From Felis catus (Eukaryota): 64,000 nt of DNA. The stretch covers positions 13,392,001 through 13,456,000 of the forward strand of contig NC_058369.1 of NCBI RefSeq assembly GCF_018350175.1. Direction: 5' to 3'. Shown here in pieces: positions 1,604 through 25,942 of this stretch; the first letter of the stretch is position 1; each line of letters starts with the position of its first letter. The notes below the pieces were generated by a model. That model made no database searches and was not told where the DNA came from. It saw nothing but the letters and a program-made list of their open reading frames with translations. A program made the translations under genes and the position numbers.

Positions 1604-2079
1604 CTGGACTCAGTCACCCCCAGCCAGGCTGGGACAGGGTGAGGCCTAGGTAGTTAGGAGGCCTGGGGGAGGAGGAGGAAAGGGCTCCCCACCTCCCTGT
1701 CCCCAAGGCTGAATGAATGAGTCGCCCAAGCACGCCCTCTGCCAGAAAGGAGCTTGGTTTTGGACAGCCCCAAAGCAGGCTTCTGCTGGCCTGTCTTCCT
1801 GGCATTGGTGATAAGGGTTAGAAATGGGGGTGGGGGCTCAGTCCCGAAGATGGTGGCCTTGAACCTATGGCCCTAGCAGGCACCCCCTCAGCTCCTGGGA
1901 GCCCCCACGTCGGGGTCCTAGGCACCCTCCACGTGGCAACATCCTGCAAGCAGGACTCTGAGGAGGTAGTTTCAGGACGGAGGTGTCCAGTCGCTTTGCA
2001 AAGTTATCCCCTCAGCAAATGCGTGTATTTGAGGGGTTGAAGGAGGGTTGGAGTTTGAAGACCCGATTTTAGAAAGGGG

Positions 2080-2720
2080 GCGGCTAGGAGTTCTCGAGAC
2101 CTGTCGGGGACCGGAGTTGTCGCTTCGCTAAGTAAGGTCCCCTCCATTGCGCCCAGCCAGACAGCGAGTTTGAGGACCAGCTGAGCGCTGGGGGCCGAAG
2201 GGGGCTCCCGGGAATGTGGGATCTTTAAATGTAGGCGGAGCTTGCGGGGTCGCCGGGGGCGGTGCCAACCCGGGCTCGACCAATCGGCGGCGCCGTCCGC
2301 GTCGCACCGCCCCCTCCTCTCCCGGCCCGGGCGGGCGCTCGCCCCCGGCCGGGCCCGTGGACAGGGCGGCGGGGGATGCACCCGCCGCCGCCCCCGGCCC
2401 GGCCGCCTCCGGGCCCCACGCCGGTCGGCTGCTGCCCGCCCCGTCCGCGGCCCCGGGCCCGGCCCCCACGCGAGGGTCTGCGGCCGCGCGGGACCCTCTC
2501 CCCTCCAGCTTCTTCTGCCCACGGGAGCCGAGCCCTGCAGGTACCGGGTGGGACGGACCGGAGCGCCCAAAGAGGGAGGCACGTCCTGGAGGGGGGACGC
2601 GGTTTGGGACAGGGGCCAGGACGGAGGGTCTCCGAAGGATCCGGAACCCAGGGGACACGGAGAGGAAGGGAATGTGTGTCTGTGCACTGCCTGAGCGAGT
2701 GGAGATTCGCGGACCCCCAA
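2080..2720 (+). promoter_or_regulatory. KCNN1: CpG island promoter of KCNN1 with CCAAT box (2280-2284) and GC boxes
   Basis: Very high CpG/GC density 4.3 kb upstream of the first canonical coding exon; contains a splice donor CTGCAG|gtaccg at 2540/2541. Confidence 0.8.
2300..2540 (+). other. KCNN1: Putative KCNN1 first exon (5' end approximate); may be coding from ATG 2376
   Basis: Donor CAG|gtaccg at 2540 inside the CpG island; matches acceptor ctcag|GTC at 7005/7006. Confidence 0.6.
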
Positions 2721-5700
2721 TCCCGGAGGGGGAAGGTACTGGGTTCACTTTGGCCGGGGTAGAGCAGTGAGTCTCTAAACTCCATAGATACGGTGGGGGG
2801 AGCTCTTGGGGTGAAGGCAGTGACCTGGGACTTATTTGGGAACGGGAGGGAGGAGACCCTCACCACTGGCTCCCAGATACTGCCGTTAGGGTCGCCCTAA
2901 TGCAGGGGCCAAGGAGCTAGGTCTCTCAGCTGTCCCTGGACAGAGGTTCGGGTACCCTACACAGGGCACTGCCTTGGCTGTCCTGGAGGGCAGGCTGCAG
3001 ATGTGAGTGCTGGAGGCTGGGAGCCAAATGGGAGACGCTGATGGAGAGGGGTCAGCGTGGAGGGCGCTGGTGGAGGCAGCCCCGCGGAGGGCAGAGCAGG
3101 CTAATTGCATCCTGCTGAGCGCTGGCAGGTTCCTGACTGGTGGTGATGGGGGGGGGGGTGGGGGGGGGCGCCCAAAGGAATTGGGCAGTCAGCGCCTGCC
3201 TTACTGTACCCACTCCTGGGCAGCCCAGGGGTGGGAGGGCAAGTGGATCCCATCCACCCTGCAGAGCTAGGGTGCAAACAGTGCTGGTGGGTGGGTTGTC
3301 TTAGGATCCTTACGCACCCTCCACTGGGACACACACCCCACACAGCTCACCCACACGTCCTGGAAGGTTCTGCCATGTGCTGCCCTGGCCACGGTTCCAG
3401 GGAGCGGTGGGATGTGGATTTCACCGCAAGGTGGGGCTCTGCTTTGGAGATAGGCCCCTTCTGGTCCAGCTCCGAAGGATGGGCAGCAGCACCTCCTCAG
3501 ATGTACCCACAGCCACATGCTAAGCATTTTCCATGTGAGGTCTCACTTCCGTTTTGGCCACCAACCTGCTGGGGGGGGGGGGCGGGGGGCAGGCACCGAG
3601 ACATCCTTTTACTGAAGAGGCAGGCGGCTGAGGAGGGGGCAGTGACTTCATCCTGGCTGGGACACCCAAGGGTCCCTCCCAGGCAGACACTGCACCAACT
3701 TGTCATTTGTAAAAGGGCTCACTCGAGGACCTTGGGGGGGTCTGGCCAGTTTCTTTGTCTTTCTGTTGAGTAGAAAAGCTTGGAGAAGCCAGCCGCCCTG
3801 CTTCCTGCCACCTGCCTGCCTTCTCCCACTCCTCGAGTCCTCCTGGGCGCCCCCTGCCGTGGGTGGCCCGCCGGGTTCCCACAGTGTCTCTTGGGGTGGT
3901 GTGAAAGGGGGCGGGGGTTCGGCTCATCCTCCCATGCCAGCCTTCAGTGAACAGAGGGCTCATGCCCCAGACATATTAGGTAATTTTGGCAATTCTAGGG
4001 ACCTTCTGAACCAGATGCAGCCCACGAGGTGTTTCTAACTTTTTAGAACTCATTGGCGAACCCAGGGCCTTCACCCAGAAAAATACACCCTTTCACAGAC
4101 ATCCAAACCTTGGCCAGAGTTTTAGAGAGGCTCCTGGTTCTTTGGGAATCTCTGAGGGTTCCAGGGACCCCAGCTTTGGGCCTAGTTGCAGTGGGGGAGG
4201 GGAAGGTATACCTGGGAAGGGGTGGGGTCTCTCGTCTCCCAGGGCGCCCCCCCCCCCCCCCGTCCCACCTGAACTGCAGAAACCAGCTGCCCCCTTCTAT
4301 GGAATCTCAGGCAGGCCACTCTGTCCTGTTTCTTCTGAGGTCACAGGAAGGGTCAGACACCCACCGTGCCTGGGTCCTGAGCTCTGTGGCCCCTCAAGGG
4401 CAGGGCTTGGCTGACTCCCTTCCCAGAAGGCTCGTCAAGAGGGAACTTGGCACATCCCACCACCCTCTGCCCCCCCCAGATGGCACTGACTTCGTCTCTG
4501 CTCCCTTCCTGACTTTGTGACCTTGGGAAGGTGCTAAACCTCTCTGAGCCTTGTCTCCCATCTGTAAATTGGGAGCGGGAATGCCGCCTGCCTCACTTAG
4601 TGGCCACGGAGGCTAAACATGATAATTCTGATAAAGAGCCCAACAAGCCCACAGTAAGCGCCATGGGCACGTTAAGGTGATGGGCCACAGGAAGGCCCTC
4701 CACCTCACTCCCTCCCAGAAGCCACCTGTACCCATCCCCCCAACCCCTCCCTGCCCAGGGCACCTTAGGACGAGGCTGCCAGGCAAGGATGGAGCATGGC
4801 CGACACACGGCTGAATTTGGCCTATGCGTCGGGCGGCTGAGTCACATCCCCAAATTGTATCTTCGTAAGTGCGTTTCGGAAGGTCGTTTGCAACACCCCC
4901 ACCCCCTCCAGGCTCCGTCTGCCAGGCCACTCGCCTCTCCTGCCTGTGCCCCCGAGCCCTGGGTGAGGACCCCCTGCGCTTTCAGGAGGGATGGTAGGAG
5001 CGATGCCTGGGGTTTCCTCACCTCCTGGGAGAGAGCAGGGTCTGCGATCGCTGTGTGTCTCCTGGTGACAGGCTCCCGGCCCCACCTGCCAGCCGATGGC
5101 CCTTCAGGTGGCGAGCAGGGGCCCTCGCCCGGGAGTAGCAAGGCCCCTGAGTGTTCGTGAAGGTGGAGAGAGAGATCCGGGGCCAAGGTCAGCCTTATAA
5201 GCCGTGAAGTACGGGGCGTGCAGGAGACCAGCTCATATAAACCATGAAGTGCTAAGCCCGTGTGAGGCCAGGACTTACAAACCAACGTGTCAGGCCACAG
5301 GTGGCCACGGCCTGGTTGAGGTAGTGCATGGAGGGGCAAGGGAAGGGACATGTTCTAATACTCATGAGGTCGCTCTGCCACGAAAGGAAGGTTTCTTGTG
5401 CCCCTACTGTGCGCGGGCACCAGCATCTGGGGACAGGCGGTGAGTGGGACAGACACTGTGGGGGGGGTGCCCGACAAGGTGTCATCTTGGCATGTCTTTA
5501 TGTGACAGTTTCCGTGTCTGTCACCCCCCGCCCCGAGTGTGGTTGCAGGGCCGCAGAGGCATCCTGTCTGTGCGCACAGCCCTCTCTCCCGGGCCTGGTC
5601 CACAGGGGCCCGCCGTGCATGCCAGGCTGGCCTTTTCAAAGGGGGTCAGCACTTGGCCACTGCCTGTCGCTGCCCCGCTTATTCCTGCTGAGAGAATCTT

Positions 5701-7086
5701 ACAAAGCAGCCCGGTCCAGGATCTGCCCTAGAAGGACATGGCCCCTTCATGGCACAGCGCCTCAGTTTCCCCACCGGTAAAACTGGCCAAATCCCAGCAC
5801 CCCTTCTTGGGGGGTGTTGGCAAGGATCAAGGAGCAAATTGGTGTGAAGGACGTAGCCTGGCGTGTTGTAGACGTTCGCTAAACATCAGCTCGTAGTGGC
5901 AACGGGGGGTACACAGGAGGGAGGGAGAGATGGTGGGTTGGGGTGGGACAGGGGAGGGTCTAGAAGGTGAGACTCCAGGCAGCCTCATCTTGTATGGGTC
6001 ACTGTCCTCAAGGTCTTCGCTCTCGAACATGATCCCAGAGGACACTGCCCTACGCAAGGGCAGAATCCCAGGATGTCGGGGCGGTCAGACAGTCTGCTCT
6101 CTGGTAGCCTGGTGGGGAAACTGAGGCTGACCCGGGGTCACAGGGCCAGGCTGAGCACATCTCACAAGGCCCTACAGAATCAACTCTGGGATCTTAGAGG
6201 TAAATACCGGGTTGCCACGTTGGTCCCGGAGTCTCTTTGGAGATCACAAACCTCCTTCCACGCAGGCAGGAGGGGGCTGGGGGGTCTCTGCAGCCACAGC
6301 CACGGTCCTCGTGTCCCCACACTGATACCCCATGCTTGCGTGTGTTCAGGCCTTCGGACAGCTCTAGGGGAGGAATTGGAGGCCCAGCAGGGCGAGCTTG
6401 ACTTGCCCGAGAACCTGAAGGTCAGAAGGAGACGAGCCCAGGTTGGAACCACCTCCTGACCACACACACGGCCTCTGGTCCTCCCAGGCAAACCTGCCAG
6501 CACATTCTGTCTCCAGACATTCCCAAGTGTTTACTGAGCGTCAGCTGAGTGCTCGGCATTGTTCGAGGTACTTGGAGACAGAAAACCAGTGGGCAAAGGT
6601 TCGATAAGAGGGCGTTCCAGGCAGAGGGCCCAGCGGGTGCAAAGGCCCCAGGCTGGACCAGGCTGGTCAGGATCTGGTGATGGGGATGCTTCCGTGGTCG
6701 GAAGAGAATGACTCTGGAAGAGTGAGAGGGTTGAGGTGGGTAGGAGCCAGACCACAGAGGGCCTCCTGGCCACAGTGAGGCCTTTGGTTTTTGTGCAGCA
6801 GCACTGGGGAGCCATGGGAGGGTTTTGAGCAGGAGAGGAATATAGGCTGACTTGGGTGTTTCTTGGATGGCCAACCCACGCGTCAGTCACGTGTCTGGGT
6901 TCAGGGCTTCCTGAGCCTCAGAATGTCTTGGGGTGGTGACAGGGGTCCCTGCCCTCTGGTCGGTTGGCAAGGCCCTTCCCTGACTGTGTCCCTCATGCCC
7001 CTCAGGTCGGCACAGGAGCCCGGTCACTGAGCCATGCTGGGCCCCGGGTGGCCTACAGCGAGCCCAACCCCGGCACCCACATAGTC

Positions 7087-25606
<18,520 letters not shown>

Positions 25607-25936: not shown

Positions 25937-25942
25937 AATAAA
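25937..25942 (+). terminator. KCNN1: KCNN1 polyadenylation signal AATAAA
   Basis: First AATAAA, 330 nt after the stop codon. Confidence 0.7.

Follow-up and report, generated by a model that had tools for sequence, protein, structure and literature searches.

A conserved upstream start codon in KCNN1 and a putative long form of the SK1 channel

Does the CpG-island exon of KCNN1, the gene for SK1, a potassium channel of the brain, belong to the untranslated leader of the transcript, or does it supply the channel with an N-terminus of its own? The question arises from a stretch of the Felis catus genome of 64,000 nucleotides (nt) (NC_058369.1, 13,392,001-13,456,000, forward strand; hereafter the window, in whose positions all coordinates are given), where an ATG at 2376 stands in frame with the canonical start of the 543-amino-acid (aa) SK1 at 7087. 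Our analysis of sequence suggests that this conserved upstream ATG is probably translated, which would give, in addition to the 543-aa form, a long SK1 that counts 625 aa in cat, in the manner of SK2-L and SK2-S. The long form already existed as an automatic prediction; what is new here is a deeply rooted motif, LSHAG, in the leader of exon 2, together with an overlapping upstream open reading frame (uORF).

The upstream ATG and its conservation among mammals

The initial annotation had read 55 codons from ATG 2376, with G at -3, to a donor at 2540, then 27 further codons without a stop from an acceptor at 7006 to ATG 7087, and a single open frame of 625 aa after splicing. Re-reading reproduced these counts exactly. 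Positions 2376-2540 comprise 165 nt, 55 stop-free codons behind an ATG with C at +4, and are followed by the donor CAG/GTACCG; the exon-2 acceptor reads CCCCTCAG directly ahead of 7006, and the 81 nt of 7006-7086 are open throughout their 27 codons. The complete long model has 10 exons, 1878 nt and a single terminal stop, and its 625 aa are identical at 625/625 residues to XP_044904176.1 (P0135), the RefSeq prediction of Felis catus KCNN1 isoform X2. Pfam domains SK_channel, Ion_trans_2 and CaMBD were found on the long model and none in residues 1-82; these domains and the identity to the RefSeq protein support the assignment to KCNN1. Exon 2 matches the genome once, which ruled out a retrocopy bearing the junction. 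Because the upstream start is in frame, the long product would contain the entire 543-aa form; its predicted mass in cat is about 68.5 kDa, that of the 543-aa form 60.1 kDa. Since the cat protein equals a RefSeq prediction and a human counterpart exists (XP_011526306.1, 626 aa, with an orthologous 83-aa extension), the sequence itself is not new.

An open in-frame ATG appeared in 10.9% of 20,000 Markov-resampled island exons, and an 81-nt leader remained open in 63.6% of the resamplings. With a chance rate of about 11% in a single genome, the evidential weight falls on conservation across species. Searching with exon 2 gave 1219 matches; from the best 120 and additional members of their clusters (up to 15 per cluster), we chose 39 long models, 1-3 species per family, which cover 26 families in 7 orders (carnivores, pangolin, horse, artiodactyls with whales, bats, primates including human, and squirrels). 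All 39 carry Met at the orthologous position and an open frame behind it, so that the conservation for which the initial annotation had looked to related carnivores extends well past them. The exon-1 part varies between 39 and 63 codons and the exon-2 part has 27 codons in every model. By hand count, the exon-1 part shows about 15-18 in-frame length changes; the horse has lost 17 codons in frame and retained the Met, and a few in-frame deletions, in squirrels and horse, lie outside repeats. A hand tally placed the long form in at least 26 of the 46 families seen. In neutral simulations with insertions and deletions (indels), the ATG, the frame and the absence of stops survived along one branch with a probability of 0.05-0.50, given that branch lengths and indel rates were assumed and that families are not independent. 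Together with the observed conservation, these figures favour selection on the reading frame, short of proof.

Within the extension, M1, G13 and Q55 are invariant in the 39 models, and the best-kept elements are M1, G13, GTLSPP, Q55 and LSHAG. The GTLSPP block would fit a proline-directed kinase site. The exon-1 peptide holds 0-1 acidic and 4-12 basic residues, with at least one R-x-R in 38/39 models; Arg-based retention in the endoplasmic reticulum (ER) is a lead that such runs suggest. Constraint at the level of the peptide is modest. A run of Pro-Arg dipeptides at residues 23-32 is longer in bovids, deer and Myotis and shorter in pinnipeds, pangolin, horse and several bats.

Table 1. Features of the KCNN1 locus in the window
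Feature	Positions	Strand	Evidence or remark
CpG island with KCNN1 proximal promoter and first exon	2001-2800		CpG observed/expected 0.59-0.95 in 200-nt bins
CCAAT box	2280-2284	+	motif scan; the only one in 1900-2700
Upstream ATG and exon 1 coding part	2376-2540	+	55 Pro/Arg-rich codons; Met and open frame in 39/39 chosen long models
Cys-Cys pair, residues 19-20	2430-2435	+	27/39 models
GTLSPP block, residues 39-44	2490-2507	+	best-conserved exon-1 stretch; 33-37/39 per column; changes include T>S and L>F
Predicted phase-0 GT-AG intron, 4465 nt	2541-7005	+	sequence; identical Q/V break point in long models
Exon 2, 5′ part (untranslated by annotation of the 543-aa form)	7006-7086	+	27 channel-frame codons in 39/39 models
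LSHAG motif, 7 codons past the acceptor	7027-7041	+	LSHAG or close variant in 73/73 upstream segments (set enriched, see text)
Out-of-frame uORF	7034-7084	+	ATG 7034, 16 codons, TAG 7082-7084; stop 2 nt ahead of ATG 7087
Canonical ATG (543-aa SK1 start) and remaining exon 2	7087-7488	+	Met equivalent to SK2 residue 1 (579-aa chain)
Further coding exons	8246-8341, 10828-11246, 14062-14203, 17479-17589	+	gene model; Pfam
Further coding exons, continued	18206-18333, 22477-22485, 22902-22971, 25352-25606	+	gene model; Pfam

The exon-2 leader and its overlapping uORF

The leader of exon 2 can be traced further back than the exon before it. Its LSHAG motif, or a close variant, recurs in 73/73 distinct KCNN1-type upstream segments, a set enriched for it because the queries contained LSHAG; among the carriers of the motif or a close variant are goby, goodeid, anchovy, shad and bichir proteins. 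In the shad kcnn1b models, 397 residues precede the equivalent Met and read through LSHAG. We also scanned metagenomes for mammalian KCNN1 DNA on which to base a codon-position test; 0/184 candidates were confirmed in the first scan and 3/382 in the second, and none of the 3 was mammal-like. The second scan yielded L002, a distant KCNN1-type exon that in its N-terminal part shows 95% likeness to a protein of a goodeid fish. In L002, a phase-0 acceptor lies 84 nt ahead of the main ATG, the 28 codons between them are open, and LSHAG stands 7 codons in, as in cat, whose exon 2 aligns with it; the Gly codon of LSHAG differs between the two at its third base only.

In alignment with the SK2 chain, PDB 9vu9_A, the L002 Met falls on residue 1. 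SK2- and SK3-type proteins carry NPFTEIAM at the site preceding the short-form Met, and P0284, a KCNN1-type protein, has LSHAG and then SPFTEIAM in one sequence. Furthermore, the best match of the mammalian profile A1 in an SK2-type protein fell exactly at the NPFTEIAM site, a weak match (E 0.036) over the last ~13 residues. A repeat-protein match, P0306, was discarded as spurious. Since the leader is open and bears LSHAG in fish, and its last residues align at NPFTEIAM, it was likely coding already in the ancestor and may share part of its descent with SK2-L, and the 543-aa form would then be the equivalent of SK2-S. The initial annotation had proposed an SK1-L analogous to SK2-L. That proposal gains from the conservation, and for the exon-2 part the relation to the SK2-L/SK3 N-terminus looks like homology rather than mere analogy; exon 1, which could not be aligned, gives it no such footing.

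The same leader holds a second, out-of-frame start at 7034, which the initial annotation had missed, and the AUGs at 2376, 7034 and 7087 all have G at -3. L002 shares this uORF: its ATG lies 28 nt past the acceptor, with 14/14 surrounding nt identical to cat, and its TAG likewise ends 2 nt ahead of the main ATG, so that the upstream ATG is present in both KCNN1 DNA sequences compared. The paralogues L003 and L004 are without this TAG, and where paralogues carry ATC, cat and L002 both have ATA. In the channel frame, the His of LSHAG never varies, and the residue behind it is A, V or G. Among protein entries, human AAB09562.1 (561 aa) has its start at the ATG of the uORF, and macaque EHH29804.1 is read in the frame of that ATG. 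P0285 and P0292 carry Arg in place of the stop-forming Ile; the uORF is thus not universal. KCNN1 is listed among predicted eIF2alpha-dependent mRNAs in PMC12303066.

Long channel, untranslated leader or translational brake

An mRNA from the proximal promoter that started upstream of 2376 would meet three AUGs in similar, adequate contexts. Under a scanning model, the first would yield the long channel and take a large share of ribosomes, leaky scanning would bring others to AUG 7034, and the short form would arise only from ribosomes that skip both earlier AUGs or from mRNAs that start downstream of 2376. Re-initiation is inefficient where a uORF stops very near the next AUG, and because the 7034 uORF ends too near 7087, re-initiation at 7087 would be inefficient as well. 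The extension would form a basic, probably disordered cytosolic tail that alters the trafficking or anchoring of SK1-containing tetramers, not their gating; LSHAG and the S-P site would be its likeliest working motifs, and the Arg-x-Arg runs possible ER-retention signals. In SK2, it is the long N-terminus that determines placement at the synapse (PMC4764564).

Several observations weigh against a translated and functional extension, and many of them would suit a rival account, which we consider unlikely: that exon 1 is a conserved GC-rich 5′ untranslated region (UTR) whose main transcription start site (TSS) lies at or past the ATG, with the long form at most a trace, the peptide functionless, and the frame kept by the harm of an out-of-frame AUG or by triplet repeat slippage. 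CCAAT boxes stand 60-100 nt from the TSS. The single box in 1900-2700, with GC boxes at 2257, 2307, 2329 and 2364 in the motif scan, suggests a TSS at roughly 2330-2380, close to ATG 2376. Amplification and sequencing in human Ewing cells recovered an alternative first exon joined to the ATG exon (PMC9564116); by our reading it would be the human counterpart of cat exon 1, and Fuest et al. regard the human proximal first exon as untranslated in that report. The extension also evolves fast, with a mean pairwise identity among the 39 models of 0.66 in exon 1 and 0.69 in the exon-2 part, compared with 0.80 in the canonical N-terminus and 0.98 in the core, and exchanges of R/W, R/C and P/L are frequent, a mutation-like pattern. 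The chance rate in a single genome mentioned above fits this account too. Most length changes sit in poly-Pro or Pro-Arg repeats, where slippage by 3 or 6 nt requires no selection, and simulated neutral survival without indels was 0.37-0.69, the upper value belonging to slow rates. The long models are themselves predictions picked for an open frame, and some may be projections of one another. We therefore tallied the families with only short or other N-termini, about 20, many of them from partial lists; short X1 models occur in dog, Lemur catta, Diceros, Eptesicus and Budorcas, several of them well annotated, and may be true losses or annotation gaps. Word-limited searches with 38 and 56 matches contained no rodent (murid and hystricomorph included), lagomorph, afrotherian or marsupial extension, but the 38-match search also missed known long forms, so that this negative is weak. 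The mammalian exon-1 peptide could not be aligned to the N-termini of fish channels, SK2 or SK3, and nothing outside mammals detectably matched it. Over the first 12 codons, cat and L002 match at 8, 6 and 7 sites by codon position; there is no third-position deficit, so that nucleotide-level constraint acts there too. Two functional suggestions of the initial annotation found little specific support: the Cys-Cys pair, proposed as a palmitoylation site, is lost in 9/10 bats, Panthera and alpaca (C19 in 28/39 models, C20 in 32/39), and the PxxP motifs, with their implied SH3 binding, number anywhere from 2 to 12 among the models. What an untranslated exon accommodates poorly is a Met at the same position in 39/39 models, in the horse even after its 17-codon in-frame loss, the several in-frame deletions outside repeats, and a fish exon-2 leader that is open, bears the motif and continues a long upstream extension.

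The conservation of exon 2 could also be that of the uORF, whose start context lies in LSHA and whose stop lies in I-V/A; it would act as a brake on the 543-aa form, and the conserved channel-frame peptide would be a by-product. The identical nt around the uORF start, the common 28-nt offset and stop position, the shared ATA and the invariant His all agree with this, as do the two primate entries in its frame and the listing among eIF2alpha-dependent mRNAs. As the whole explanation, we hold it to be quite improbable: a uORF has no need of the Leu and Gly of LSHAG or of a fixed codon count from acceptor to motif (7; 5 in two proteins), P0285 and P0292 do not fit its stop, and the exon-1 Met is left unexplained. 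Only two DNA sequences were compared, and both constraints may coexist. A translated long SK1 thus remains the reading that we prefer. A bolder version of it seems doubtful to us: that the long form would be ancestral and the main SK1 product of this promoter in most placental mammals, humans included; that the 543-aa start would be a third AUG, throttled by the uORF since bony fish; that SK1 would have been studied almost only in its SK2-S-like form; and that the LSHAG extension would hold the missing targeting signal, with a stress- or activity-dependent switch between AUGs setting the ratio of long to short. With a conserved long SK1, one could ask directly whether studies of SK1 have dealt with the wrong form and, if true, about 250 nt that annotation gives to the human 5′ UTR would become coding for the interpretation of variants; because the long sequence is already in RefSeq as a prediction, the surprise is limited.

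Comparison with known SK forms and further observations

The closest known system is SK2-L/SK2-S of KCNN2 (Strassmaier 2005 and Allen 2011, as described in PMC4764564 and PMC5334391), in which SK2-L, longer by 207 aa, has been demonstrated as protein and reaches the postsynaptic density by binding MPP2. SK1 resembles it in that the putative long form wholly includes the short one, the short forms of both start at homologous Mets, and the stretch ahead of this Met is similar to NPFTEIAM. In contrast, the SK1 extension is 82 aa long, split by an intron, Pro/Arg-rich, known here from its sequence, and alignable with SK2-L over the last ~13 residues only. Teleost kcnn1b long models (XP_048108601.1, Alosa alosa, 979 aa) likewise extend in frame via LSHAG into the same Met, but their upstream residues, about 370, are rich in His and Gln and contain nothing that detectably matches the mammalian exon-1 peptide. 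The RefSeq X isoforms XP_044904176.1 and XP_011526306.1, which are the same protein in cat and an orthologous extension in human, are automatic predictions, and we found no paper that discusses them in the open-access literature.

The original human SK1 entry, AAB09562.1, carries part of the exon-2 extension peptide but begins with the ATG that lies out of frame in the cat sequence. It has 18 extra codons (54 nt) where cat has 53 nt and the human model has 27 codons in frame; this implies a frame difference of 1 nt, which is likely an error in the complementary DNA (cDNA). In the mouse, SK1 may also occur in an N-terminally longer form of about 580 aa; if that form has the same kind of extension, the novelty of the long SK1 drops. 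The mouse SK1 transcript set of Shmukler (2001, PMID 11267657) is reported to comprise up to 16 SK1 polypeptides.

No description of the SK1 extension and no experimental test of it were found in the open-access full-text literature, to which papers behind subscription, Shmukler 2001 and Strassmaier 2005 among them, do not belong. The KCNN1 forms mentioned in the available text of an Ewing sarcoma ribosome-profiling (Ribo-seq) preprint (10.64898/2026.09.16.751792) are truncated only, and the available text of a Kcnn1 mouse preprint (10.1101/2024.10.11.617887) is silent on isoforms.

Other starts and splice forms accompany the gene. A second candidate upstream exon on the forward strand, 706-777, has a phase-0 donor at 777 and an in-frame ATG at 736 that opens 14 codons and would yield a 41-aa extension; it reads DPSGQ...QREK and matches the alternative N-terminus of the orangutan and macaque models P0016 and P0164. 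The ATGs at 2214 and 2229, with open reading frames of 4 and 1 codons upstream of the CCAAT box, were set aside. P0121, isoform X3 of Nycticebus, leaves exon 2 ahead of the canonical Met and continues in frame into exon 3; lacking that Met, this splice form relies on the upstream ATG. Between exons 4 and 5, a 9-nt microexon (11664-11672, forward strand) with AG/GT ends would add ENM, an insert that several felid and human models contain and that DLM replaces in shad models. Simple repeats, (GAAT)n and (GT)n, lie upstream of the CpG island at 70-150 and 1556-1599. At the other end of the gene, the sole AATAAA/ATTAAA hexamer within 2.4 kb past the stop codon, at 25937, is likely the polyadenylation signal.

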